From an uncultured Acidobacteriota bacterium (GTDB lineage: Bacteria > Acidobacteriota > Vicinamibacteria > Vicinamibacterales > 2-12-FULL-66-21), in the NCBI GenBank assembly GCA_963771395.1, contig CAVYTY010000023.1, forward strand, positions 250,964-314,963: 64,000 bases of DNA. Direction: 5' to 3'. Below the pieces are notes generated by a model. It ran no database searches and was not told where the DNA came from. It worked only from the letters and a program-made list of their open reading frames with translations. Below, piece after piece: positions 11,191 through 63,119 of this stretch. Positions within the stretch are counted from its first letter, which is position 1. Each line of letters starts with the position of its first letter. Position numbers and translations under genes: made by a program.

Positions 11191-11510
11191 GATCACGGAT
11201 CTCACGGCCCACGTCATCACCGGACGCGGATTTCGCGGATGACGTTCTCATGGGACGCGGATCTCGCGGATCACACGGATCGCTTCAGGAGCTGGCTGGC
11301 AAACATTGAAGAGGCGTCAGCACAACGACCGGCCGCGCCGCAGGCGCGGTCCAGACGGGCCAGTCTGGCTCCGCCAGGCTGCCGGTCTCTGATCAACACC
11401 GTCCTCCGGAACACCTGACTAATCCGCGAGATCCGCGTCCCGTGAAACGTGATCCGCGAGATCCGCGTCCCGTGAGATCCGTGATCCGCGGCCCGTCAAA
11501 TCGATAGGAT
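11191..11510. repeat. family-B composite B1: left arm (11191-11283) of GGGACGCGGATCTCGCGGATCAC-type units, 137-bp core, and inverted right arm (11421-11510)
   Basis: The left arm contains gggacgcggatctcgcggatcacacggatc. The right arm contains its reverse complement gtgatccgcgagatccgcgtccc twice. About 11 GATC sites. Confidence 0.85.
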
Positions 11511-12036: not shown

Positions 12037-13641
12037 TCAGTCGGCCATCGCCTGGATGCGGGCGCGCTCGGCCCTCGACGCGGTGATCGCGAGCTCGATC
12101 GCGTCGTCTGAAAGGATGGTCATGTCGGCGGCGTCGCTCTTCGCGTCGGCGTGCTCCACGGCGCGCGAGATGACCTCGGCGTTTGTGGCGCCAGCCTTCT
12201 TCCCGAGAAACGGCTTCACGATGAGATAGAGGACGTCCCGCAGCGGCATGAATCTCACGAACCGCCGCAGCAGCCGGAAAGTCTGCAGCGGATACCGGGT
12301 GAACTTGTAGATGATGAGCTTCCGCATCTCCTCCGAACGGATGCGGTGCACCTCTTCGCCCGGCAGGCAGCTCGGATCGATCGACGTGCACTTGAAGTAC
12401 TTGTACCAATCGGTCGCGTCGTTCACGAGCCCGCGCTTCACGTATTCCTGCCAGAGCGGCGTGCCTCTGTAGACGCACAGGCGGTTGAAGCCGAAGCTGT
12501 CCACCCGGATCTTCGACGCGAAGCGGAACGTCGCGCGCAGGTCTTCTTCGGTCTCGTCGGGGATACCGACGACGAAGAAACCATGCACAATCTCGATGCC
12601 GGCGGCTTTGGCGTTCGAAACAGCCGATTCGATTTCCGCGAGCGTCTGTTCCTTCTTCAGGCGGTCGAGAATCTTCTGGCTCCCGCTCTCGATGCCGAAC
12701 ATCACCGTTCGGCACCCCGACTTCGCGAGCTTCGGGAACAGATGCTGGGCGGTCGAGTCCACACGCCCTTCGAGCCCGTACTTGATGGAATTGCCGGCGG
12801 CGATGAGGCCGTCGCAGATCGCCTCGATGCGCTTGGGTTGGAGGAGGAAGTGGTCGTCGACGAAGTAGACCGATCCGTAGCCGTCCTTGCGGAGCTGTTC
12901 GAACTCCGCCACCACGTGCGCCGGCGTCCGCGCCCGCCACTTGCCTTCGTTGAAGATCGGGATGTCGCAGAAAACGCACGGCCACGGGCAGCCGCGCGAC
13001 GTCTGCATCGTGGTGAACCGGTCGAGAGACAGCACTGCCGGCACGTCGAGCGGCATGGACTCGACGAAGTCGAGCGGCAGGCTCTCGCGGTCAGGGAACG
13101 GCCACTGGTCGAGATCGCGAGGGAGGGCGCGGTTCGGGTTGTTCCGAAGCGTGCCGTCCTTTTCCTGCCAGGTCACGCCGGTCACCGTGTCGGGGTCGTT
13201 CAGGCGCTCGAGCAGATCGACGATCAGCTGCTCCCCGTCGCCCCGACACACGAAGTCGACCTCTTTGCATTGCGCCTTCACGAGCTGGGCGTTGAGCGTC
13301 GCGAAGACACCACCGAAAGCCAGCTTCACGCCGGAATCGGCGGCGCGGAGCTGCCGCGCGAGCATCTTGGCGTAGGGGTAGCTCGTCGTGGACAGAAAGC
13401 TCATGCCCACGAGGTCCGGCTTCTGACGACGCATCTCGTCGATGATGACGTCGTCGGGCGTGTCGGGATTGGCCTGGTCGAACATCGTGACCTCGTGGCC
13501 GGCGCGTTTGAGCACCGACGAGAGGGACATGATGCCGATCGGTGGAAACCCCATGACCTGAAGACGGCCGTTCGGGCCCCTTTTCTGGCGCGGGATCGCG
13601 TAGAACTGCGGATCGCGAACGTGGACCAGGAACACTCGCAT
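12037..13641 (-). CDS. B12-binding-domain radical SAM protein
   Basis: MRVFLVHV... N-terminal cobalamin-binding-like domain. TSRGCPWPCVFCDIP is the CxxxCxxC radical SAM motif. The internal ATG at 13641 was chosen as the start. Confidence 0.88.
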   Translation of the reverse strand: MRVFLVHVRDPQFYAIPRQKRGPNGRLQVMGFPPIGIMSLSSVLKRAGHEVTMFDQANPDTPDDVIIDEMRRQKPDLVGMSFLSTTSYPYAKMLARQLRAADSGVKLAFGGVFATLNAQLVKAQCKEVDFVCRGDGEQLIVDLLERLNDPDTVTGVTWQEKDGTLRNNPNRALPRDLDQWPFPDRESLPLDFVESMPLDVPAVLSLDRFTTMQTSRGCPWPCVFCDIPIFNEGKWRARTPAHVVAEFEQLRKDGYGSVYFVDDHFLLQPKRIEAICDGLIAAGNSIKYGLEGRVDSTAQHLFPKLAKSGCRTVMFGIESGSQKILDRLKKEQTLAEIESAVSNAKAAGIEIVHGFFVVGIPDETEEDLRATFRFASKIRVDSFGFNRLCVYRGTPLWQEYVKRGLVNDATDWYKYFKCTSIDPSCLPGEEVHRIRSEEMRKLIIYKFTRYPLQTFRLLRRFVRFMPLRDVLYLIVKPFLGKKAGATNAEVISRAVEHADAKSDAADMTILSDDAIELAITASRAERARIQAMAD

Positions 13642-15785: not shown

Positions 15786-15928
15786 GGTTCAAAGGGTTCA
15801 AGAGGTTCAAAAAAAGGTTCAGGGGGTTCAAAAGGTTCAAGAGGTTCAGGGGGTTCAAAAGGTTCAGGGGTTCAAGGGGTTCAAAGGGTTCAGGAGGTTC
15901 ATGAAGGTTCAGAGGGTTTCGGGGTTCG
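15786..15928. repeat. family-A array A1: 14 GGTTCA + 2 degenerate units, dominant 9-bp period, purine spacers
   Basis: Unit starts read at 15786, 15795, 15804, 15816, 15825, 15834, 15843, 15852, 15861, 15869, 15878, 15887, 15896, 15906, 15915, 15923. Confidence 0.95.
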
Positions 15929-16042
15929 CTGTTTTTGCTATTCGGCCGAAGGCGCGCGTTCGCAGATTCTGAAACGATCCTGGCGGGTCGCCCGATATTC
16001 TGAGCAAATCCGCGCGGCATGCTGCGTGCTCCGCGCTTCTGC

Positions 16043-16438
16043 ATGGTGGCCGCTCGGACATTCGAGGAGCTGGATGCCTGGCAGCTGTCCAGTGAGCTCC
16101 GCGACACGATCTTCACGTTGACTGAAACGGGACCTGTTCTCAAGAACCTCAAGTTCCGCGATCAGATACGGGAGTCGTCGAGCTCGCCGCCCGCAAACCT
16201 GTCGGAAGGGTTCGGCCGTTTCAGGCCGCGCGAGTTCGCGCACTATGCGCGAATCGCGCGCGCGTCACTCCTCGAAACGCGCAACCATCTCTTGGATGGG
16301 CGAACGAAGAAGTACTTGAGCGAGGAAGACACCGCCCGCCTCCTCAAACTTCAGGTGCGAGCGACGATAGCAACAACCAGACTGCTCAGATACCTCGAGT
16401 CCTGCAAAGGCAAGCCGCCCACAGGCTGGACGTACTGA
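16043..16438 (+). CDS. four-helix-bundle protein (23S rRNA intervening-sequence protein family, Avd-like)
   Basis: FEELDAWQLSSELRDTIF...PPANLSEGFGRFRPREFAHYARIARASLLETRNHL fits the PF05635/TIGR02436 pattern. Its TGA stop is the first unit of array A2. Confidence 0.85.
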   Translation: MVAARTFEELDAWQLSSELRDTIFTLTETGPVLKNLKFRDQIRESSSSPPANLSEGFGRFRPREFAHYARIARASLLETRNHLLDGRTKKYLSEEDTARLLKLQVRATIATTRLLRYLESCKGKPPTGWTY

Positions 16439-16582
16439 ACCGCTTGAACCTCTCTGAACCTGCCCTGAACCCCTGAACCCCTGAACCTCCTGAACCTCCT
16501 GAACCCCCTTGAACCTCCTGAACCCCCTGAACCCTCTTGAACCCTCTTGAACCCTCTTGAACCCTCTTGAACCTCCTGAACT
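16436..16582. repeat. family-A array A2: 15 TGAACC + 1 degenerate units, inverted relative to A1, pyrimidine spacers
   Basis: Unit starts read at 16436, 16445, 16455, 16466, 16474, 16482, 16491, 16500, 16510, 16519, 16528, 16538, 16548, 16558, 16568, 16577. The array ends at the TAA of the M28 gene. Confidence 0.95.
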
Positions 16583-20838: not shown

Positions 20839-20846
20839 CCATCAGC

Positions 20847-20928
20847 GGGGACACTCAACCGGGACAGTCCCCGGGGACACTCAACCGGGACAGTCCCCAG
20901 GGACACTCAAGGTTGAGTGTCCCCGGGG
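20847..20928. repeat. family-C array C1: 2 x GGGGACACTCAACCGGGACAGTCCCC plus a palindromic variant GGGACACTCAAGGTTGAGTGTCCC
   Basis: Units at 20847-20872, 20873-20898 and 20899-20928. Inner palindromes GGGACAGTCCC and CCCCGGGG. Confidence 0.9.
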
Positions 20929-20997: not shown

Positions 20998-22539
20998 TTG
21001 GCAGACACACGACTGAAGATTGCGGTTTTCATCGACTTCGACAACATTGAAATCGGGGTCAAGAGCACGCTCGGCGTGCAGTTCGATATCGGGGTCGTCC
21101 TCGAAGCACTGAAGGAACGGGGCGACGTCGTTTCCAAGATCGCCTATGGCGACTGGACACGCGCCGGGGACTACAGCCGATCGCTGACGCAGCACGCGAC
21201 CAAGCTGGTGCAGCGCAACCTCACCCCGGGCGGCGACAAGAACGGCGCCGACATCAATCTGGCGCTCGACGCCCTCGAGATGGCGTTCACCCACGGCCAC
21301 ATCAACGCCTACGTCATCGTCGGCGGCGACAGCGATTTCATCAGCCTCGTCGAGAAGCTCAAACAGTACGACAAGCAGATCTTCGTGGTTGGCGGGCGGG
21401 CGTTCACCAGCCTGGTGATGCAGCGCAACTGCCACGAATTCATCGCCTACGAGAACCTCGTCAGCTCACGCCGTACCCAGGACCGCGGGCAGAAGAGCGC
21501 GCCGGCGACGACACAGCAGGCGCCGCTCGATCAGGTGGTGCCGCTCGTGCGCCGCGCGCTCAAGGTGCTGGTCGATCGCGAGGTTACGCCGCAGCTCGGC
21601 CTGCTCAAGAGTACGCTCCTGCAGCTCGATTCCACGTTCTCCGAGCGTACGTATGGCGCGGGCAGCTTCCGTGATTTCGCGCAGAAGCTTGCCGCGGCGG
21701 GGCACGTCGTATTGCGCGAGGCCGGCCGCAACGTCCTCGTGGAGCTCAGCGACAATGCGCTCGTGACCTCCGCCGTCCCTTCGACCGGGTCTGCGCAGGC
21801 GTCTTCGACGAGCCCCTCGACAAGCTCGGGTCAGAGCAGCGAGGAGCCATGGTCGCGGCAGCAGCAAACAGCGCCGCCGTCACCCGAGCCGTTGACGCGC
21901 GAGACGGCGCCCGTCAACGGGAGCGGTCGCGCCGCTGATGGCATCCGCGAGATCCGCCGCCTGTTTCAGACGGCGCAGCGGCCGCCGCGCTGGCCGATGT
22001 ACATCCGACAGTTGAAGCAGTACCTCCGCGCGGTCGACGCGGCGTTCGATGAGCGCAAGTACGGGTTCGAGACGCTCGGTGATCTCATGCGGGCGTGTCA
22101 GCGCGACGGGCTGCTGCGAATCGAGCGCGATCGTCAGGGCGGGATGCGGATCTTCCCAGGCACGTTGACGGCGCCTGCCGGCGATCCGGCGCCCATGCTC
22201 GACGAAGGTGACGCGCAGGAAGCTGGCGGCTGGGTCCCACCTGTCGATACGTCGAGCGAGCCCGAGGTCATCGAAGGAGACGTCCTGCATGAGATCGACG
22301 TGCCGCAGGTCATCGACGCCGAGGTGACGACGCCGCCGCCCCCAGAGAAACCGTCGCGCCGCCGTCCACGCGCGGCGAAGACCGTTCGACCGACCGGCGA
22401 GGGGCGCGCGCCACGGAAGTCGCCCGACGCACCCGCGGCGCGGAAGGCCGCCGACGGAGCCCCGAAAACGCGAAAGCCGGCCGCCCCGAGGCCGCGTTCC
22501 GCCCGCAGCCGCCCGCGCACCGACGTCCCCCAGGGTTAG
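20998..22539 (+). CDS. NYN (LabA-like) domain protein with two OST-HTH/LOTUS-like domains and a Pro/Ala/Arg-rich tail
   Basis: KIAVFIDFDN...GADINLALDALEMAF...YVIVGGDSDFISLVEKLKQYDKQIFVVG is the NYN core. Two later segments (GLLKSTLLQLDSTFSERTYGAGSFRDF and IRQLKQYLRAVDAAFDERKYGFETLGDL) look like OST-HTH. TTG start. Confidence 0.8.
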   Translation: MADTRLKIAVFIDFDNIEIGVKSTLGVQFDIGVVLEALKERGDVVSKIAYGDWTRAGDYSRSLTQHATKLVQRNLTPGGDKNGADINLALDALEMAFTHGHINAYVIVGGDSDFISLVEKLKQYDKQIFVVGGRAFTSLVMQRNCHEFIAYENLVSSRRTQDRGQKSAPATTQQAPLDQVVPLVRRALKVLVDREVTPQLGLLKSTLLQLDSTFSERTYGAGSFRDFAQKLAAAGHVVLREAGRNVLVELSDNALVTSAVPSTGSAQASSTSPSTSSGQSSEEPWSRQQQTAPPSPEPLTRETAPVNGSGRAADGIREIRRLFQTAQRPPRWPMYIRQLKQYLRAVDAAFDERKYGFETLGDLMRACQRDGLLRIERDRQGGMRIFPGTLTAPAGDPAPMLDEGDAQEAGGWVPPVDTSSEPEVIEGDVLHEIDVPQVIDAEVTTPPPPEKPSRRRPRAAKTVRPTGEGRAPRKSPDAPAARKAADGAPKTRKPAAPRPRSARSRPRTDVPQG

Positions 22540-27274: not shown

Positions 27275-27424
27275 GGTTCAGAAGGTTCAGGAGGTTCAAG
27301 AGGGTTCAGAAGGTTCAATCGTTGCTCGCACCTGAATTTGCGAGCTCGCGCCTTCGGCCGAATGGCAAAAACAATGAACCCCTGAACCTCCTGAACCTCT
27401 TGAACCTCGTGAACCCCCTGAACC
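27275..27424. repeat. family-A composite A3: 5 GGTTCA units (27275-27317), 57-bp core, and 6 TGAACC units (27375-27424)
   Basis: Unit starts 27275, 27284, 27293, 27303, 27312 and 27375, 27383, 27392, 27401, 27410, 27419. The core is homologous to the leader of the 16-kb four-helix-bundle gene. Confidence 0.9.
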
Positions 27425-30662: not shown

Positions 30663-31385
30663 ATGCGCCGTTCGTTCCTGACCGCGCGCTGGGAGAACCT
30701 CGTGATTCTGAACTTCGAGGTCTCTCCGACAACGTTGGCGGCACTCGTGCCTCGAGGCACCGAGCTGGACCTCTGGCAGGGCCGCGCGCTCGTCAGCCTC
30801 GTGGGATTCTCCTTCGCGGACACGCGGGTGCGAGGAATCTCGATACCGGGCCACCGGGACTTCGAGGAAGTGAACCTCAGGTTCTACGTGCGCCGCCGCC
30901 TCCCGCCCGGACCGGACCGTCGCGCAGTCGTCTTCATCCGGGAGCTGGTGCCCAGGTATGCAATCGCCGCTCTTGCGCGCCTGCTCTACAACGAGCCCTA
31001 TCTGCCCGTGCCGATGCACCACCGGTCACGCCTCGACCGGCATCGGGGCGGCGAGATCGCGTATGGCTGGCGCTACGGCGGCAAAGAGTTCTTGATGGTT
31101 GCTTCGGTCGAAGGTTCCGCGCAGACGCTCGAGGCCGGATCCGAAGCGGAGTTCATCACTGAGCACTACTGGGGCTGCACGCGGCAACGCGACGGTGGCA
31201 CGCTGGAGTACGAAGTCGAGCATCCGCGTTGGCGTGTCTGGACCACGCCGCGCGTGACGTTCAGCGGGCCGGCCGGCCTACTCTACGGATCGGTGTTCGG
31301 AGAGATCCTCAGTGGGCCACCGCGTTCGGCATTTGTCGCCGAAGGATCGCCGGTGACGGTCTACGCCGGTTGCCGGATCGCTTGA
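30663..31385 (+). CDS. DUF2071 (YqjF-like) family protein
   Basis: FLTARWENLVILNFEV...LVSLVGFSFADTRV...FEEVNLRFYV matches the DUF2071 N-terminal pattern. Confidence 0.75.
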   Translation: MRRSFLTARWENLVILNFEVSPTTLAALVPRGTELDLWQGRALVSLVGFSFADTRVRGISIPGHRDFEEVNLRFYVRRRLPPGPDRRAVVFIRELVPRYAIAALARLLYNEPYLPVPMHHRSRLDRHRGGEIAYGWRYGGKEFLMVASVEGSAQTLEAGSEAEFITEHYWGCTRQRDGGTLEYEVEHPRWRVWTTPRVTFSGPAGLLYGSVFGEILSGPPRSAFVAEGSPVTVYAGCRIA

Positions 31386-31391
31386 GGACGA

Positions 31392-31613
31392 ACACGGATC
31401 GCAGCGATTCACGGATCAATGGACGCGGATCACTCGGGTCACAGATCGACGGGACGCGGATCACACGGATCAACAGATCAACGGGACGCGGATCACGCGG
31501 ATCAACAGATCAACGGGGACGCGGATCACACGGATCGACAGATCAACGGGACCGCGGCTCACGCGGATCACAGATCGACGGGTCGCGGCTCACGCGGATC
31601 GCAATCGCGAGCA
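31392..31613. repeat. family-B array B2: six direct about 32-bp units (GGGACGCGGATCACNCGGATCAACAGATCAAC) plus degenerate lead-in
   Basis: Unit starts at about 31421, 31453, 31485, 31518, 31550, 31582. About 16 GATC sites in about 220 bp. Confidence 0.9.
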
Positions 31614-49966: not shown

Positions 49967-50072
49967 TGGACGCGGATCGTCTCAACGGGACGCGGATCTC
50001 GGAGACATATTTCAACGGGACGCGGATCTCGCGGATCGACATTCTCACGTGACGCGGATCTCGCGGATCACA
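49967..50072. repeat. family-B array B3: four direct GACGCGGATC(TCGCGGATC) units
   Basis: Unit starts at about 49969, 49989, 50019, 50051. About 7 GATC sites. It fills the gap between two convergent stops. Confidence 0.85.
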
Positions 50073-51436
50073 TCATGCCGCCTCCCGGGCTTTTCGGTAG
50101 CGTCGGCGTCGTCTGGGGGGCCGCCGGCGGCTTGAGCGTGTAGCGATACGCCTCGATGAGCCATGCGCCGGTGCGCTTCAGCACGAGCGTGACCTGCCCC
50201 TCCATCCTGGGCGTTGGTTTTCCGGACGAATCCAGAACACCGCTCAGTTCCCACTTCCCGTCGGCAACAGCGATGTCCTCTGAGAGACAGCGGATCCTGT
50301 TCAGGGCGAGCGGATGCTGCGACGAGCGGTACTCACGCCGTCTGAAGAGCTGCATGCGGTTGATGGTGATCATCTGCGCGCCCCGTTCGATTGCGCCGTC
50401 CGGGTGGATGATGTCCCCGCCCTTCGACCACAGCGCGCCGAGTTTCTCATAGTCGTGATTGGCCCAGTGGACATAGAACCGCTGCCGAGCGCCGCGATCG
50501 CCCGTTCGTCGCCGGCCGAGCATCGTTCCAGAGGGTCTGGCGCAGCGGCTGCTGAAGTTGTCGCCTCGACGCGTGGCGGTTCCGCCACGGGCGGTGGCGT
50601 GCTCGATCGCGTCGGCAGCGGCGCAGTTCTCAGGGCGGCGATATCCTGCAGGATGCCGCTCGACGAGCGCTTCGACGAACACCCGTCCCTTCTCTCGCGT
50701 CGCGCGCGTCGGATCGCCCCAGGTGCCAGTCGGCGAGTAGGTGCCCGTGCCGCCGCGCTGCCGGGTGAGTCGGCCCCCGCCAGGCGAGGGGGTGTAGTCC
50801 TTGACGGCCTTTCGTCATGTCGACGCTCGACGGATCGATGTAGAGCATCATCGAGGTCTCGACCTCGTCGGCATGCGTCCCGCCTTCCTGCTCGATGAAA
50901 CCCTTGGTCGCAGGATCGAGCCGGCTGCCGAGGTTGGTGTAGCGCATCAGCACGCCATCGGACGCGAGGAGAGCCACCGCGGGGTCGAGGGCGCGTACTG
51001 TCGAGACTCCAGTGTTGAGGACATAGAAACGGCGAGGGCCGTACGCCGACAGCGTCCGGACGACATCGGCGGTCATGTCCCTGGCGGTGGCAAGCGACAG
51101 CGACGTGGAGCCGGGATACTCGAGGAACGCCGGATAGAAGTGATAGGTCAGCGTGGGTGCGACGACAACGGCGGTCGCGTCGACCACGCGCTGTGTCAGA
51201 TAATCGGCGAGCGTCAGATCGTTGCGCAGCTTCAGATGCGGTCCGTGCTCCTTGCTGCCCGCGCCGAGCGGGATGAGGACAACCGTCTCTGGCGTGAGCG
51301 CCGGCTCGGCCTCCTGCCACGTCAGCGATTCGAGCCGCACACTCTTTTCGAGCGGGGCCGGACTGCGGCTCTGACGAGCGGAGGGCGTCGTGGAGAGCCC
51401 CAGGACACAAACAAGCGCGAAGATCTGCAGGCGCAT
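50068..51436 (-). pseudogene. creatininase-family domain fused via a Pro/Ala linker to a SnoaL/DUF4440-like domain; three frame changes (about 50807, 50655, 50480)
   Basis: ...EVETSMMLYIDPSSVDMTK / AVKDYTPSPGGGRLTRQRGGTGTYSPTGTWGDPTRATREKGRVFVEALVER / ILQDIAALRTAPLP...AGDERAIAALGS / RFYVHWANHDYEKLGALW... Confidence 0.6.
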
Positions 51437-51486
51437 GACGGTTCCTCGCTCGCGGAAGTGGTGCGGCGGACTGTACACTAACAGAA

Positions 51487-51713
51487 GTGCAGAGGGTGCT
51501 AAGGTGCCCGGTGCTTAGGGTGCCGGGGTGCCAAGGTGCCCGGTGCCTGGTGCTTAGGGTGCCACGGTGCAAGGGGCCAGAGTGCCAACGGCGTTGGCGC
51601 GTTGTCCGTGACCTGGCACGCTCCGCACCCCAGCTAGGCACGAGGCACGGGGCACGCTTGCACCCCGGCACCCTAAGCACCAGGCACCGAGGCACCTTGG
51701 CACTTTAGCACCC
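51487..51713. repeat. family-D composite: about 11 GGTGCY units (51487-51573), about 40-bp core, and inverted GGCAC/GCACC units (51613-51713)
   Basis: ggtgctaaggtgcccggtgcttagggtgccggggtgccaaggtgcc... is mirrored by ...ggcaccctaagcaccaggcaccgaggcaccttggcac. Confidence 0.9.
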
Positions 51714-51719
51714 TGATAT

Positions 51720-52559
51720 ATGTCGGATTGGGACGCCGAACGGTATCACCGGGTGTCGAACCCGCAATTGGAGTGGGGCCTGCGGGTGCTGCGCCGGCTG
51801 GGTCCGCAGCCGGGAGAGCGCATCCTCGACATCGGGTGCGGGACCGGCCGCCTCACGGCGGAGCTTGCGGCGGCGATGGGCGAGGGCATGGTCGTTGCCG
51901 TCGATCGTTCCGAGACGATGCTCCGCGAAGCCGCGGGTCAGGCGGTTACACCGCCAGGGCCGCATCGGATCCCCAATCCACTGAACCACGAACGCGCGAG
52001 CGTTCGAGTCTATTTCGTCCGCGCCGACGGCGCCGCGTTGCCGTTTGTGGATATGTTCGACGCAGTACTGAGCACGGCGACGTTCCACTGGATTCTCGAC
52101 CACGACCAGCTCTTCGCGAGCATCTACCGGGCGCTTGCCCCGGGGGGCCGGCTCGTCGCGCAGTGTGGCGGCGGCGCCAACCTCGGCCGTCTGCTCGATC
52201 GCGCCGGAGCGCTTGCCGCGTCGCCCACCCTTGCGCCCTACTTCCACGGTTGGCGGGGACCGTGGGAGTTTGCCGACGTGCCGGTCACGATCGAACGGCT
52301 GGACAAGGCGGGATTCACGGCGATTGACGTCTCGCTCGAGCCGGCTCCGGTCACGTTTCCCGATCGAGGTAGCTTTCGCGAGTTCGTGTCGTGCGTGTGC
52401 CTTCGCGATCACCTCACACGGCTTCCGGACACCCATCGGCCGCAGTTTCTCGACACGCTGGCCGACGAGGCCACCCTGGATTCCCCGCCCTTCACGCTCG
52501 ACTACTGGCGTCTGAACATCGCCGCGATGAAACCCGCGGGCATCGAGCAAGCGGCGTGA
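51720..52559 (+). CDS. class I SAM-dependent methyltransferase
   Basis: ILDIGCGTGRLT motif I. The N-terminal WDAERY resembles Tam-like enzymes. Confidence 0.85.
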   Translation: MSDWDAERYHRVSNPQLEWGLRVLRRLGPQPGERILDIGCGTGRLTAELAAAMGEGMVVAVDRSETMLREAAGQAVTPPGPHRIPNPLNHERASVRVYFVRADGAALPFVDMFDAVLSTATFHWILDHDQLFASIYRALAPGGRLVAQCGGGANLGRLLDRAGALAASPTLAPYFHGWRGPWEFADVPVTIERLDKAGFTAIDVSLEPAPVTFPDRGSFREFVSCVCLRDHLTRLPDTHRPQFLDTLADEATLDSPPFTLDYWRLNIAAMKPAGIEQAA

Positions 52560-54376
52560 CCCCACCGGTTCCGTACGTCGAGAACGCCGCGCGCCACGCC
52601 AGGGACGGCGAAAAGGAGGCGCAGCTTTCGAAAGTGATCGCGCGGCTGCGGCTGACGACCTTCCTTGTCGCGCGCGGCGATTCTCGTGTGGTCGCTCTCG
52701 CACGGCGGGACGCGGTTGCAGCTCTGGACGGCCTTCCTGCTGTTCGTTGTGTTCGGCGTCCTCGTTGTCTGGCACGCCCGCGTCGACGAGCGCGTGGCCT
52801 GGCACGGCGCGCTGAGGCTGGTGAACGTGCGGGCGCTGGCTCGTCGCGCGCGCGACTGGCCTGCGCTGCCCGACGCGGAGGCCCCTACGGGCCTCGATCT
52901 GGAGGATCACCCCTACGCGCTCGACCTCGATCTCTTCGGGCGCGCATCGCTCTTTCAATGGCTCGGTCCCGCGGCGACTCCTCGTGGACGCACGACGCTC
53001 GCGACGTGGCTGCTCCGTCCCTCACCTCGCGCGGAGGTGATCGAGCGTCAGGACGCCGTCGCGCAGTTGGCGGCGCTCGATGACTGGCGCCTGACGTTCG
53101 ATGCCCACGGCGTGCTCGCCTCGAGTGCCCGGCAGAACGAGATCGACTGGTTCCTCGCCTGGGCCGAAGGGCCCGATCTCTTCGGCCGGAAGACAGGTCT
53201 CCTTCGAGCCGTTGTCCTCCCGCTCACCGGGGCGTTGTGGATCCTTATCGCCGGCGAAGTAACCGGCTGGATGCCGATCGGTCTCTGGCCCATTCCGATG
53301 GTGGCCGGCATCGTCCTGTCGTTTGCCACGGCCGAGCGCCTTCAGCAGACGTTCAATCGCGCCGGAGCCGGCCAGTCTGCGCTCGGCCGTTACGCGGGGC
53401 TCTTCGAGCACGCCATCACCGCGCCGGCTGCTTCGTCGCGCCTCCAGGCCCTCCTCGACAGGCTGTCGGCAGAGGGACAGCCAGCACCAGCATGCATGCG
53501 CCGGCTGAATCGGATCGTCGGGTTCGGCGAGCTGCGGCAGAGCTCCGATCCTGCATTTTCCCGTGCAGGCGCTGACTCTGTGGGATTTCCACGTGCTCTT
53601 CGCGCTCGAGCGGTGGCGGCGGACGAGCGGACGCCGGGTCAGAGTCTGGCTCGACGCCCTGGGCGAGCTCGATGCGCTCGGGCGGCTCGCGCACTGCGCG
53701 TCGCGACAATCCCGAGTGGGCCGTCCCATCGTTCGGGCCTGTTCGGCGAGGTGACGGCGGCCGGCATCGGCCACCCGCTCATCTCTGACGATCGGCGCGT
53801 CGCCAACGACGTCACGGTTGGTCCGGCCGGAACGGTCCTCCTCGTCACCGGGTCGAACATGTCGGGGAAGAGCACGCTGCTCCGCTCGATCGGTCTCAAC
53901 ATCGTGCTCGCCCAGGCGGGCGGCGTGCGTCTGCGCGCGACAGATGTCCCTGCCCGAGTGCGATCTCCAGACGAGCATCAGCGTGCACGACTCGCTCGAG
54001 CGCGGCCTGTCGTACTTCATGGCCGCCCTCGCGCGCCTCAAAGGCGTCGTCGACGCGGCGCAGCACGAGCGCCAGGGACGCGATGCTCGTGTATCTGCTC
54101 GACGAGATCCTGCAGGGCACCAACAGCGTGGAGCGGAGCATCGCCGTCCGCGCGGTGACGCGCCATCTGCTCGAGGCCGGCGCCATCGGCGCGATGACCA
54201 CGCACGACCTCGGTCTCGCGGAAGAAGAGCCGATGAAGAGCGCCGCGCAGTTCGTCCACTTCTCGGAGACGTTCGACGCGGACGGCACGATGCGATTCGA
54301 CTACGCGCTGAAGCCGGGCCTGGCCACGTCGCGCAACGCCTTGCGGCTGATGCAGATGATTGGGATCGAGCTGTGA
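52556..54376 (+). pseudogene. MutS-related (MutS domain V ATPase, membrane-anchored) gene with about six frameshifts
   Basis: The GTG overlaps the methyltransferase stop. The sense hops frames at about 52670, 53543, 53700, 53735, 53915 and 54080. It contains LVTGSNMSGKSTLLRSIGLNIVLAQAGG, SVHDSLERGLSYFMAAL and LLDEILQGTNS. Confidence 0.7.
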
Positions 54377-54478
54377 CAGTCGGCAGTCGGCAGTCGTCGG
54401 AATCGAGAGTCACAGTCGTCAGTCTCAGTCGACGGTCAGAGTCGACAGTCAGAGTCGACAGTCAGCAGTCGACAGTCA
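54377..54478. repeat. family-E array: CAGTCGG / GTCGACAGTCAGA units, direct
   Basis: cagtcggcagtcggcagtcgtcgg...gtcgacggtcagagtcgacagtcagagtcgacagtcagcagtcgacagtcacg. Contains four GTCGAC palindromes. Confidence 0.85.
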
Positions 54479-54564: not shown

Positions 54565-56180
54565 TTGGCGCCAGTGCTTAGTCGACCCCGCTTCATCGTC
54601 TTCCTGTCGGTCCTCCTCTTGCTCGGACAGCGTTCCGGCCGGCCAGGGCCAGCCGCGATATGACCTGCTGATCGCCGGCGGTCAGGTCGTCGACGGCACC
54701 GGCGCTCCGGCCCGGCGGGCGGATGTCGCGATCAAGGCCGGGCGCATCGCGGCCATCGGCACCATCGCGAAGATCGACGCGCGGGAGGTGATCGACGCTG
54801 CCGGCCTCGTCGTCGCGCCGGGTTTCATCGACGTCCACACCCACGCCGACGACCTCATCGACCAGCCGCGTGGCGAGAACTTCGTCCGCATGGGCGTCAC
54901 GACCATCGTGGCCGGAAACTGCGGCTCGTCTTCTCTCGATGTCGGCAAGGCGTTCGACGGCGGTCGAACAGGTCGGCGCGTCGGTGAACTTCGCGACGCT
55001 CATCGGGCACAACACGGTGCGTCGTGACGTGATGGGGACTGCGAACCGCAACCCGACGATTCCCGAGCTCGACAAGATGAAGGCGCTCGTCTGGCGCGGA
55101 ATGGCGGACGGCGCCGTAGGCTTCTCAACCGGCCTCCAGTACGTGCCAGGCACCTATGCCCAGACGTGGGAGATCATCGAGCTCGCGCGCGTCGCCGGCA
55201 ACGAAGGCGGCGTGTACGCCTCCCACATGCGCAACGAGGGCACGGCGCTCGAAGAAGCCGTCACCGAAACGATCCGCGTCGGTGAGATGGCGGGCTGCCG
55301 CGTGCAGATTTCTCATCTGAAGGTCGACAGCCCCAGCCGCTGGGGTGCGAGCGCGAAGGCACTTGCGCTCATCGACGATGCCCGGAAGCGCGGCATCATC
55401 GTCGAGGCAGACCAGTATGCGTACACGGCGGCGAGCTCGTCGCTCGGCATCCGCTTCCCCTCGTGGGTGCTCGAAGGCGGTCAGGCGCAGATCAACACGC
55501 GCCTCAACGACGCGGCCATGTGGGCGAAGATCAGGAACGAGATCCGGGCGCTGCTCGCCGAGCGCGGCCTCGCGGATCTGTCCTTCGCTGTCGTGGCGTC
55601 ATATCGTGCGGATCCCTCGCTCAACGGCTTGTCGATGAAGCAGGTGGCGGCAAAGCTGAAAGGGACGGAGTCAGCCGAGGCGCAGCTCGAGGCGGCGCGG
55701 GAGATGATGCTCGCCGGTGGGGCATCGATGGTCTATCACTTCATGTCCGACGACGACATCGATCGAATCATGAAGCACCCGCAGGTCGCTGTCGCGTCGG
55801 ACAGCTCGGTGCTGACGATGGGGGAGGGCGTGCCGCACCCGCGCGGCTACGGCAACAACGCAAGAGTGCTGGGCGAATACGTGCGCGTGCGGAAGGTGAT
55901 CACTCTCGAGGAAGCGGTCCGCAAAATGACGTCGCTCCCCGCGGATCAGTTTCGATTCGCTGAACGCGGCCGGATCGCTGCGGGCGATTTCGCAGACATC
56001 GTGGTCTTCGATCGCGCGACGGTGGGGGACGCGGCGACATTCGACAAGCCGCACGCGTACGCGCGCGGCATCGCCTATGTCCTGGTCAATGGTGTGCCCG
56101 TCATCAAGAACGGTGAGCACACCGGCGCGAAGCCGGGAAAGGCGCTGACGTTGGGGAAAGCACAGACGCCCAAGCGCTGA
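54565..56180 (+). pseudogene. second D-aminoacylase-family gene, two frameshifts (about 54640 and 54955)
   Basis: Signal-like RFIVFLSVLLLLGQ / YDLLIAGGQVVDGTG...PGFIDVHTHADD...GNCGSSSLDVGKAFD / AVEQVGASVNFATLIGHNTV... to the end. Confidence 0.7.
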
Positions 56181-56261
56181 ACCCTGAACCCTTGAACCCT
56201 CTGAACCTTTTTGAACCCCTGAACCGTTTGAACCTTTTGAACCCTCTGAACCTTTTGAACC
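56178..56261. repeat. family-A array A4: 10 TGAACC units
   Basis: Unit starts 56178, 56185, 56193, 56202, 56212, 56220, 56229, 56238, 56247, 56256. The first unit contains the stop codon of the preceding gene. Confidence 0.95.
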
Positions 56262-58396: not shown

Positions 58397-58499
58397 GGTT
58401 CAAAGGGTTCAAGGGGTTCAAAGGGTTCAAAGGTTCAGGGTTCAGGAGGTTCAGGCCATGAACCTTGAACCTCTGAATCCTACCTGAACCCTTTGAACC
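58397..58499. repeat. family-A composite A5: 7 GGTTCA units abutting 5 TGAACC units around a 5-nt centre
   Basis: Unit starts 58397, 58406, 58415, 58424, 58432, 58439, 58448; centre ggcca; then 58459, 58466, 58474 (degenerate), 58485, 58494. Confidence 0.95.
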
Positions 58500-58933: not shown

Positions 58934-60048
58934 TCGAACAGCGGCGTCAGCTCGCTCGCAATGCGCCGTAAGCCCTCGCGAAGGAACTCCTCGCGGCCGC
59001 CGAGCCAGATTCGCAGATAGCCTTGGAGCCCGACGTGCGATCCGGGCACGATGAGCGTGCTCTGATTGACCCGCACGCGTTCGGCGACGTCGAGGCTGTT
59101 GATGTCCGCATCGTACCTCACGAGCGCGATGGCTCCGGCCTGTGGCTCGCGCCAGGTGAGCCGTCCACCGAGGCGGCCGATCCACTCGCGGGCGATGGGA
59201 AGGTTGTGGGTGAGGATGGCTCGCGTGCGCGCATAGCAGCGCTCGCGATTCTCCGGCTCGACGGCGACGCGCGCGAGCCGGTCGGACAGCTTGTTGGGCC
59301 CGATCGTGAGGTAGTCGTGCTGCGACCAGCACTCCGATACGAGCGCGCGCGGGCCGACGATCCATCCCACGCGGACGCCGGGAATCCCATAGGCCTTCGA
59401 GAGGCCGCTCGTGACGATCACACGGTCGCTCAGTCCCCAGAAGCTCCTCGTGCGATCACCGTCGATCTCCGCGCCGAGATACACCTCGTCGGCGAGAATC
59501 CACGTGTTCGTGGACTCGCACCGGCTCACGATCCGTTCCATCGCGCTCGGCGAAAGGATCGAGCCGGTTGGGTTGTTGGGGTTCGAGAGATAGAGCAGGC
59601 GCGCCCGAGGTGTCACCGCGCGGTCGAACTCGTCCCAGTCGGGCTCCCAGCCCGTATCGTGTCGCAGGGTAAACGTTCGAACAGTCGCGCCGAGGCTGCG
59701 CGCAACGCCTGGCATCTGCATGTAGTTGGGCACTTCCATGGCCACCTCGTCGCCCGGCTGGAGCTGGCTCAGGGCGATCAGGTAGTTGGCTTCGGAGGTG
59801 CCGTTGGTGACTTCGATCTGCTCGACGTCCGCGCCCGGGTAGATAGCCGCGAGGCGCTCACGGAGCTCGATCGTGCCGTTCGACTGACTGTAGCCGAGCG
59901 GCTGATCCATGAAGGCGTCGAGGTCGAAGCCCATCTCGACAAGCTCCCGGAGCGTCAGCGGCCGCACGCCGCTCTCGCTCATGTCGTAGTCGACGAGGTT
60001 CTCCCAGGTCGACTGCATGCGCTCCATCGCAAATGGTTCAAGAGGCAT
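58930..60048 (-). CDS. PLP-dependent aminotransferase (class I/II)
   Basis: 372 aa with NPNNPTG and SGLSKAYGIPGVRVGW (the PLP-lysine region). Confidence 0.9.
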   Translation of the reverse strand: MPLEPFAMERMQSTWENLVDYDMSESGVRPLTLRELVEMGFDLDAFMDQPLGYSQSNGTIELRERLAAIYPGADVEQIEVTNGTSEANYLIALSQLQPGDEVAMEVPNYMQMPGVARSLGATVRTFTLRHDTGWEPDWDEFDRAVTPRARLLYLSNPNNPTGSILSPSAMERIVSRCESTNTWILADEVYLGAEIDGDRTRSFWGLSDRVIVTSGLSKAYGIPGVRVGWIVGPRALVSECWSQHDYLTIGPNKLSDRLARVAVEPENRERCYARTRAILTHNLPIAREWIGRLGGRLTWREPQAGAIALVRYDADINSLDVAERVRVNQSTLIVPGSHVGLQGYLRIWLGGREEFLREGLRRIASELTPLFD

Positions 60049-60104
60049 TGATTTGGTTCAAGAGGTTCAAGAGGTTCAGGTGGTTCAATAGGTTCAAGGG
60101 TTCT
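60035..60104. repeat. family-A array A6: 6 GGTTCA + 1 degenerate unit spanning an intra-operon spacer
   Basis: Unit starts 60035, 60055, 60064, 60073, 60082, 60091, 60099. The outer units lie inside the flanking coding sequences. Confidence 0.9.
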
Positions 60105-62975: not shown

Positions 62976-63020
62976 ACACGCTCTCCAGAGAGCTTCCGCG
63001 ACCGCGCAATAGCTGAGCTC

Positions 63021-63074
63021 GGGGACACTCAACCGGGACAGTCCCCGGGGACACTCAAGCCGGGACTAGTCCCC
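63021..63074. repeat. family-C array C2: GGGGACACTCAACCGGGACAGTCCCC + GGGGACACTCAAGCCGGGACTAGTCCCC
   Basis: The first unit is identical to the C1 units. The second carries the palindrome GGGACTAGTCCC. Confidence 0.9.
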
Positions 63075-63119
63075 GGACGACTGGTCGACACGCCAAGGAG
63101 AATTGAAGCGGCTTCCGGC

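Follow-up and report, generated by a model that had tools for sequence, protein, structure and literature searches.

The 64,000-nucleotide stretch of DNA analyzed here (the window), from an uncultured Acidobacteriota bacterium of the order Vicinamibacterales, contains at positions 51487-51713 an inverted pair of arrays of a short GGTGCC-type unit, which we designate the GGTGCC element. As far as sequence comparison can establish it, the element is real and shares its unit, its architecture, and its polarity with arrays that, in related bacteria, enclose genes for IVP, a protein with a four-helix bundle that belongs to the 23S-rRNA-intervening-sequence family (PF05635/TIGR02436; S23p). Comparison of orthologous loci shows that the element, as read from the assemblies, arose in place and keeps changing as single units and 39-40-nt blocks of five units are gained or lost. 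We consider it probable that the element is a foldback repeat similar to the intervening sequences (IVSs) of rRNA genes but devoid of an open reading frame (ORF), that it grew in place, that it is likely to form an RNase III-sensitive hairpin in a leader transcript, and, with less confidence, that its unit is set in trans.

Anatomy of the GGTGCC element

The gap of 283 nt that separates the divergent creatininase-family gene (start 51436) and methyltransferase gene (start 51720) is almost entirely composed of repeats. The unit map of this gap agrees with the first-pass annotation, made by a model from the letters alone, according to which the space between the divergent genes is taken up by repeats. 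The arrays and the core described by that annotation are also real, although the approximately 11 units and the 40-bp core that it reported are replaced by 12 units in each arm and a core of 28 nt. The locus is organized as follows.

50068..51436, - strand: creatininase-family (PF02633) and DUF4440 gene, divergent neighbor, frameshifted in the window.
51468..51480, + strand: block GGACTGTACACTA, conserved and lying between the array and the start of the creatininase gene, a candidate operator or -10 element (TACACT).
51487..51586, + strand: left arm, 12 units (G)GTGC(C/T), each with a variable spacer of 1-3 nt, period 7-9 nt.
51587..51614, strand not assigned: core (loop) of 28 nt, between the arms.
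51615..51713, + strand: right arm, 12 GCAC-centered units with the consensus G(G)CAC(C), each with a spacer; the array closes with AGCACCC.
51720..52559, + strand: class I S-adenosylmethionine-dependent methyltransferase gene, directly after the array.

The units of the left arm are centered on GTGC and spaced by 7-9 nt, with exact GGTGCY in 9 of the 12, and this arm additionally displays a 39-nt higher-order repeat. GGTGCY units and complementary units are strictly split by strand, none being found in the opposite arm. GGTGC was counted 10 times in the left half and 0 times in the right half, and GCACC 0 and 7 times, respectively, for a background of about 0.35 GGTGC/GCACC per 227 nt in the rest of the window. 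When the units are profiled by alignment on GTGC, a G precedes this motif in 17 of the 23 units of the window and in 46 of the 49 units of locus L209, which belongs to the closest relative. The unit positions on either side of GTGC are largely conserved, and the spacers between units vary both in length and in sequence. A palindrome, CCAACGGCGTTGG (CCAAC-GGC-GTTGG; 51585-51597), overlaps the last left unit, after which comes the core. The GGTGCC unit contains no run of three G and has no G-quadruplex potential. No other GGTGCC array is present within the 64-kb window.

The array ends 5 nt short of the methyltransferase ATG, which is devoid of a Shine-Dalgarno sequence. A consensus scan of positions 51350-51800 revealed neither a sigma-70-type promoter nor an intrinsic terminator. 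Searches of the window for tRNA and tmRNA genes, and with Rfam 15 at gathering thresholds, gave no match, including none for rRNA; in E-value mode, Rfam returned only generic long-hairpin microRNA and VA RNA models (MIR1437 at 56 bits for a threshold of 168). An ORF of 73 codons at 51487-51708 was rejected as a gene since it is a by-product of the repeat.

Growth of the element in place

Homologs of the methyltransferase assign the window to the Vicinamibacterales (phylum Acidobacteriota); an exact look-up of the methyltransferase protein itself gave no record. The divergent creatininase/methyltransferase pair, followed by a MutS-like gene, is conserved in Vicinamibacterales relatives. In the relatives that lack the array (L001, L003, L004, L005/L006, and L210), the gene-to-gene spacer is only 52-97 bp. 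The loci are listed below with the identity of their methyltransferase to that of the window.

L003 and L004: 81-83% identical; no array; ATG 13-14 nt past the block GGACTGTACACTA.
L001, L210, and L005/L006: 84-89% identical; no array; gap of 85-97 bp.
L008: 87% identical; cagaaGTGCCcttGGCACtttGGCACcttGGCACCctgatATG, corresponding to 1 left and 3 right units.
L007: 88% identical; the contig starts inside the right arm (assembly break).
Window: reference; 12 left and 12 right units.
L209: 93% identical, closest relative; about 17 left and about 37 right units.

The spacers of L004 and L005/L006 already end in CAGCACCCT adjoining the ATG; the terminal unit AGCACCC next to the ATG pre-exists in array-less relatives. 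A seed, GTGCC...GGCAC, is visible in L008. The core of the window together with the first two right units aligns to the array-less spacer of L005/L006 with a score of 26, which was reached by 11 of 1000 shuffles, and the core of L209 is the same as that of the window apart from two substitutions. The core thus resembles a remnant of the original intergenic spacer, located between facing GGTGCY arrays. No target-site duplication was detected at the element. The ancestral-like core, the graded sizes, the pre-existing terminal unit, and the absence of a target-site duplication indicate that the element was not inserted ready-made.

The right arm of L209 consists of a 39-40-nt block of five units present about six times, and the mirror image of this block is found in the left arm. 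Copy number and 39-40-nt blocks differ between close relatives, indicating that slippage or unequal exchange changes array size, and the sequences compared show that the two arms change independently and quickly. The first-pass annotation had opposed independent slippage events to a common generating mechanism; these are not alternatives, since slippage or unequal exchange resizes the arrays.

The block GGACTGTACACTA, which contains the palindrome TGTACA, was found with minor substitutions in all 8 of the 8 orthologous loci, over methyltransferase identities of 81-93%. Its location 13-14 nt before the ATG in the shortest spacers suggests that the ancestral mRNA was nearly leaderless or that the block is an operator shared by both genes. 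Because the consensus promoter scan found nothing, we can only infer that the block is a candidate promoter.

An artifact of long-read metagenome assembly or sequencing was also considered. The creatininase-DUF4440 gene switches frame near position 50800, and the MutS-like gene (52556-54376) is split over three frames. In comparison to intact orthologues, both neighbors of the element are therefore frameshifted, owing either to long-read indel errors or to pseudogene formation. Fragmented genes were also observed in L004 and L209, which belong to the same ENA accession series (ERZ250395xx). These frameshifts, and the error-prone nature of such repeats, are what an artifact has in its favor. 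However, the same array is present at the same site in the independent contig L209, shorter versions are present in two Joint Genome Institute (JGI) contigs (L007 and L008), and analogous arrays are found in many assemblies from independent projects. An artifactual origin is thus most improbable.

A second array, of CAGTC/GTCGAC type, is located at 54375-54477 and begins at the stop codon of the MutS-like gene (cTGTGACAGTC). At this site, the number of units is 0 in L005, 2 in L210, 3 in L003, about 10 in L004 (positions 12660-12755 of that locus), and about 12 in L007. This graded series is another case of an array that has grown or shrunk at its site.

Pairing of the arms and folding

The complementarity of the arms, which had been proposed as a base-by-base check of the inverted architecture, was confirmed. 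The best ungapped pair of segments (51495-51557 and 51634-51696) covers 63 nt with 84% complementarity, and gapped alignment of the arms gave 82%. Fold stabilities were compared to those of dinucleotide shuffles, none of which reached the stability of the real sequence. The region was far more stable than the shuffles both as DNA (-94.9 kcal/mol versus -54.6, z -11.2) and as RNA (-169.8, z -11.8, for the + strand; -159.3, z -10.6, for the - strand). Permutation of the order of the right-arm units lowered stability only weakly (z -1.76), and 11 of 200 permutations folded as well as the real sequence. Pairing mostly comes from the complementary units themselves, and a strict mirror order of the units has only marginal support. 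Selection of a strand-specific RNA was rejected, as arm mismatches do not display any excess of G-U pairs.

The first-pass annotation had placed the promoters of both genes in or next to a potential cruciform. The latter is unsupported since the arms are imperfect and the best arms are 76 nt apart; imperfect arms and a center of 28-76 nt disfavor cruciform extrusion. More generally, the array might be regulatory DNA of the divergent promoter, acting as a series of sites to which a transcription factor or a nucleoid protein binds, or as a cruciform controlling both genes. Occupancy of the whole promoter region and the combination of regular spacing, conserved hexamer, and free spacers are expected for protein-binding sites. 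However, the array is missing from the same promoter in six relatives with intact genes, similar arrays are found in all intergenic contexts, and a period of 7-9 nt does not hold sites on one face of the helix. A regulatory role is for these reasons very unlikely. In particular, the array is not a needed regulatory part of both genes, as the orthologous promoters of relatives work without it.

Association of inverted arrays with IVP genes

An inverted pair of arrays enclosing an IVP gene is present in the window itself.

15786..16573, + strand: 14 GGTTCA units, a 520-bp core with an IVP gene (16043-16438; 23S_rRNA_IVP/TIGR02436), and 15 TGAACC units.

This element fills the gap between convergent multicopper-oxidase and M28-peptidase genes, and the stop codon of the IVP gene is the TGA of the first TGAACC unit. 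Eighty loci encoding IVP homologs were collected from one metagenome scan, of which 61 had at least 250 nt on both sides. The loci were scored by the number of copies of a hexamer upstream that is matched by the number of copies of its reverse complement downstream. A score of at least 4 was obtained for 21 of the 61 IVP loci. At control positions displaced within the same contigs it was reached in 0 of 187 cases, and at random positions in genome loci in 4 of 575. Lowering the threshold to 3 led to 38 of the 61 IVP loci and 7 of the 187 displaced controls. When direct instead of inverted repeats were scored, only 4 of the 61 IVP loci attained 3. The unit that flanks the IVP gene varies with the identity of the IVP to the window protein.

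74-82% identical: GGTTCA.
56% identical: GGGTTC.
50% identical: GGTTCC.
47% identical: GGTGCC or GGTGCA.
43-45% identical: GGGTGC.
More distant IVPs (contigs of 36-74% G+C): heptamers such as GTGCTGA, GGACTGA, TTAGTAA, and GTTTAA-type.

This correspondence between unit and IVP is due in part to vertical inheritance, locus L130 being orthologous to the GGTTCA element of the window. The group of IVPs with 43-56% identity is found in different gene contexts. Between the same flanking genes, L130 carries the IVP core in the orientation opposite to that of the window, indicating that the arms recombine. Inspection of flanking sequences located IVP genes between NADH-dehydrogenase-like genes (L162) and in a 2-oxoacid dehydrogenase operon (L181). 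Together with the accB-accC context described below for Xanthomonas, these locations indicate that IVP elements are often inside essential operons.

GC skew at the 21 IVP loci was positive for the 5' arm in 20 and negative for the 3' arm in 19, and all ORF-less pairs encountered had the G-richer unit first (5' arm). In the window, L009, L023, L092, L094, L209, and L130-L205, the G-rich strand points to the center from either side, and no pair with the reverse arrangement was encountered. The proposal of the first-pass annotation that the hexamer families have a common cause is supported by this shared polarity, observed across units, and by the enclosure of IVP genes above chance. The IVP did not match any entry of the PADLOC defense library, and the only PHROGs match was a weak one, to Avd of diversity-generating retroelements, for the IVP of L092.

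GGTGCC arrays in other genomes

Genomes were scanned for three close GGTGCC units with one genome per species, a procedure that gives presence and not frequencies. Many of the matches were coding Gly-Ala repeats in Actinobacteria. Among the matches listed, GGTGCC arrays were found in Vicinamibacterales (L013, L055, L092, L094, L106, and L124) and in other Acidobacteriota (L009, L023, L035, L064, L089, and L128). L013 harbors about 30 units in one direction, and one Acidobacteriota metagenome-assembled genome (L089 and L128) holds three GGTGCC arrays. Inverted GGTGCC-core-GGCACC pairs are present in L009, L023, and L094, with short cores that are mutually unrelated. Together with the orthologous array of L209, these matches establish that the GGTGCC family is not unique to the locus; uniqueness had been named as a refutation of the first-pass annotation.

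The same annotation had called for recording what lies in the cores of such arrays. In addition to the unrelated short cores of L009, L023, and L094, this revealed an IVP gene in L092 (Vicinamibacterales), in which a GGTGCC pair encloses a core of 590 bp corresponding to the gene (PF05635/TIGR02436). The encoded protein is 43% identical to the IVP of the window. IVP genes enclosed by GGTGC-type arrays were also found in soil contigs (L135-L142). By these comparisons, the class is widespread in bacteria, full-size members apparently carrying an IVP gene in the loop and ORF-less members being scattered intergenically.

These observations bear on the possibility that the element is a neutral mini- or microsatellite generated by replication slippage alone, with no specific factor and with an inversion arising by accident from a small palindrome. 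Variation of copy number in close relatives, tandem duplication of blocks, the unequal arms of L209, the seed visible in L008, and the lack of any sign of selection for RNA pairing are all compatible with slippage. However, random seeds predict a different unit at each locus, whereas a small set of units is encountered repeatedly, both inside one genome and across genomes. In addition, the unit is conserved while the spacers vary, which does not fit slippage since homogenization of the units would homogenize the spacers too. Finally, slippage does not account for the uniform polarity (20 of 21 IVP loci and every ORF-less pair) or for the strong association with IVP. We therefore regard slippage alone as an unlikely origin of the element.

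A prediction in Xanthomonas

The IVP of the window matches one solved structure, that of XCC0516 from Xanthomonas campestris (2GSC). Xanthomonas genomes contain intergenic arrays of the heptamer GGGAATC, 186 in Xcc and 183 in Xac (Rehm et al., 2015; PMC4692102). About 70-75 of these arrays form convergent inverted pairs, and the arrays have conserved positions and variable lengths and are mostly transcribed (PMC4692102). They were interpreted as G-quadruplex formers of unknown function, without any tie to mobile elements or IVP genes, and Calothrix heptanucleotides were mentioned in the same study (PMC4692102).

Generality of the class would predict that GGGAATC flanks an IVP gene in Xanthomonas. 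This prediction was confirmed by P0147, an IVP of Xanthomonas campestris that is 85% identical to XCC0516 and whose gene is located between accB and accC (L211, 2923-3373). Its upstream flank contains GGGAATC-GGGAGTG-GAGAATC-GGGAATC and its downstream flank three ATTCCC-type units. These flanking heptamers are absent from the rest of the 6.3-kb locus.

The GGTGCC element and the Xanthomonas pairs share intergenic tandem arrays of short units in convergent orientation, with the G-rich unit first, and occupancy of the same site in relatives with variable length (0, 1+3, 12+12, and about 17+37 units for the GGTGCC site). An IVP gene flanked by the unit of the arrays is common to GGGAATC, GGTGCC, and GGTTCA. 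In contrast to the strict 7-nt units and G-tracts of Xanthomonas, which belongs to a different phylum, the acidobacterial unit is a hexamer followed by an irregular spacer of 1-3 nt and has no G-quadruplex potential. The capacity to form G-quadruplexes belongs to the published interpretation and not to the inverted-array architecture. The acidobacterial element is best filed as a kind already described, and not explained, in Xanthomonas, the irregular unit composed of a hexamer and a spacer being new.

Comparison with other repeat systems

The IVS of Coxiella burnetii is described as a selfish element located in helix 45 of 23S rRNA; its loop holds an S23p (IVP) ORF, and its stem, formed by terminal inverted repeats, is cleaved by RNase III (Warrier et al., 2016; PMC4990558). 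The stem region contains three or four tandem GACAGAT heptamers, the number of which differs between strains (PMC4990558). Like the IVSs of Coxiella and Leptospira, the class described here has a long inverted-repeat stem and full-size members with a four-helix-bundle ORF in the loop, as observed for the element at 15786-16573 and for the GGTGCC-armed loci L092 and L135-L142. Unlike IVSs, which occupy helix 25 or 45 of 23S rRNA, the GGTGCC element lies between protein-coding genes, its core of 28 nt has no ORF, and its arms are 100 nt long and composed of about 12 units instead of forming a 28-bp stem.

The hmw1A leader of Haemophilus influenzae contains a heptamer repeat that folds into a long hairpin, which is processed by RNase III (PMC12721329). 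The number of repeats sets expression, and for this number to change, transcription, the hairpin, and RNase III are all needed (PMC12721329). The GGTGCC element similarly combines a tandem short repeat in a putative leader with a long predicted hairpin. The hmw1A hairpin differs in pairing one repeat arm with a G-rich region, at a single locus with a known phase-variable phenotype, whereas both arms are arrays in the GGTGCC element.

REPINs are reportedly intergenic, hairpin-forming inverted doublets specific to each family, the gene for the cognate RAYT protein is said to be flanked by its own inverted repeats, and different families are reported to coexist in a genome. REPs are single imperfect palindromes of 20-30 nt, unlike the tandem arrays of 7-9 nt units found here. 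The gene between the arrays encodes an IVP, devoid of known catalytic activity, and not a HUH Y1 transposase such as RAYT. In addition, the GGTGCC copy appears to have grown in place, in contrast to REPINs. Other look-alikes are the foldback (FB) transposons of Drosophila, the subterminal arrays of hAT/CACTA elements, and the heptamers of cyanobacterial short tandemly repeated repetitive (STRR) sequences. The resemblance concerns long inverted arms made of tandem short units, variable and sometimes coding loops, and unstable copy number. The FB and hAT/CACTA elements are eukaryotic and have transposases, STRR arrays are mostly unpaired, and no homology is implied.

IVP genes have been noted in cas operons, between cmr3 and cmr2, without mention of repeats (PMC3936711). 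A literature search for IVP/S23p together with flanking repeat arrays retrieved only the Coxiella IVS heptamers. In the literature covered, it found no paper that ties non-rRNA IVP genes to tandem arrays or to the Xanthomonas heptamers, which does not by itself prove novelty.

Other repeat families in the window

The inverted architecture was observed three times for GGTTCA/TGAACC and once for CGCGGATC/GATCCGCG. The GGTTCA family occupies 5 sites in the window, one of which is the IVP-bearing element. The remaining sites and the third family are as follows.

27275..27424, strand not assigned: IVP-less GGTTCA inverted pair with a 57-bp core (36/40 nt match).
58397-58499: ORF-less GGTTCA inverted pair with a 5-nt core.
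56178-56261 and 60035-60096: solo GGTTCA/TGAACC arrays.
11225-11490, 31374-31600, and 49973-50073: third family, CGGATC/GATCCGCG, with a 32-nt higher-order unit (..acgggacgCGGATCnnnCGGATC..).

The core of the 27275-27424 copy matches, at 36 of 40 nt, the sequence adjoining the left arm of the IVP-bearing copy, indicating that it is an IVP-less derivative of the GGTTCA element. The same origin by deletion from an IVP element is unsupported for the 51487-51713 copy, whose core lacks such similarity. In each of the two solo arrays, the first TGAACC unit supplies the stop codon of the adjacent gene. The third family comprises one inverted pair around a 141-nt core and two one-directional arrays. 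Intergenic contexts of every type hold arrays of this kind, among them gaps between convergent genes and positions immediately behind a stop codon. The window also contains a 26-nt repeat, GGGACActcaaccGGGACAGTCCCcg, with the palindrome GGGACAGTCCC, at 20846-20925 and 63020-63076. The first copy is immediately upstream of a gene encoding NYN and OST-HTH/LOTUS domains (20998-22536).

The recurrence of families raises the possibility that the elements are non-autonomous mobile elements, similar to REPINs or to MITEs (miniature transposable elements with inverted repeats), that are inserted ready-made and moved in trans. Mobility would explain the presence of the same unit at several loci of a genome (5 for GGTTCA in the window, 3 for GGTGCC in the metagenome-assembled genome of L089 and L128), the 36/40 nt that the core of the copy at 27.3 kb has in common with the IVP-bearing copy, the insertion of IVP genes in unrelated operons (accB-accC; L162; cmr3-cmr2), and the related units (GGTTCA, GGTTCC, GGTGCC, and GGTGCA) carried by related IVPs in different contexts. 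However, the 51487-51713 core resembles the ancestral spacer, the outermost unit is already present in array-less relatives, and the site displays a graded series of sizes without target-site duplication. In addition, the ORF-less GGTGCC pairs found elsewhere have unrelated cores, and no transposase, RAYT (Y1), or reverse transcriptase was detected among the 26 ORFs of the window that were scanned. For the GGTGCC element, we accordingly give mobility a low probability.

Proposed mechanism

The array is located between the conserved TGTACACTA block and the ATG and, if this block is a promoter, would be transcribed as part of the methyltransferase leader. The leader transcript is predicted to form an RNA hairpin that is imperfect and approximately 100 bp long, an expected substrate of RNase III by analogy with IVS stems and the hmw1A leader. 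If this is the case, changes in copy number could tune expression or be neutral. A trans-acting factor would determine which unit proliferates; IVP is the obvious candidate, a step that we propose with less confidence.

Several observations weigh against a leader hairpin that grew in place under the control of IVP. The small array of L008 could be a remnant of collapse and not an early stage, and the frameshifts in the window and L209 assemblies imply that exact unit counts may be wrong. Transcription through the array is an assumption, since no promoter was located. RNA is not singled out by folding, as both strands fold about equally well, unit order matters little for fold stability, and the mismatches between the arms show no G-U bias (3 G-U, 2 A-C, and 11 transversions). 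Finally, the 64-kb window contains no IVP gene with GGTGCC arms, and the core of the GGTGCC element has no similarity to the interiors of IVP elements or to any fetched locus. The link of the 51487-51713 copy to IVP consequently relies on the shared unit and architecture only.

A broader and more tentative possibility, which we consider rather doubtful at present, is that a widespread repeat system, comparable to REPIN/RAYT, has the very common IVP/S23p proteins as its cognate partners, with a separate unit of 6-7 nt for each IVP lineage. The gene would reside in the loop of a hairpin with arms built from this unit, and the same unit would seed and expand elsewhere as ORF-less pairs and solo arrays. 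This would cover the GGTGCC element, the approximately 180 Xanthomonas GGGAATC arrays, and possibly the cyanobacterial STRRs and the ORF-less IVSs of rRNA. The polarity could arise, for example, if the unit were added at each of the two 3' ends that a break or an excised core offers, or if a protein bound in one orientation.

Implications

The association between IVP and inverted arrays ties together three separate puzzles, namely the role of IVP/S23p proteins, the origin of rRNA IVSs, and the existence of hundreds of intergenic arrays of heptamer type. The tie rests on the flanking of IVP genes by arrays above chance, on the occurrence of the same units without ORF elsewhere, and on the fit of the Xanthomonas heptamers. 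The question is testable in Xanthomonas, which is tractable and whose XCC0516 protein has already been crystallized. Position 1 of the JGI metagenome contig L007 falls within the right arm of the orthologous array. Repeats of this kind interrupt short-read assemblies and are likely to be under-represented in short-read metagenomes. For the acidobacterial host, the variable hairpin of about 230 nt located before the methyltransferase start may act as a copy-number expression dial, as in hmw1A.

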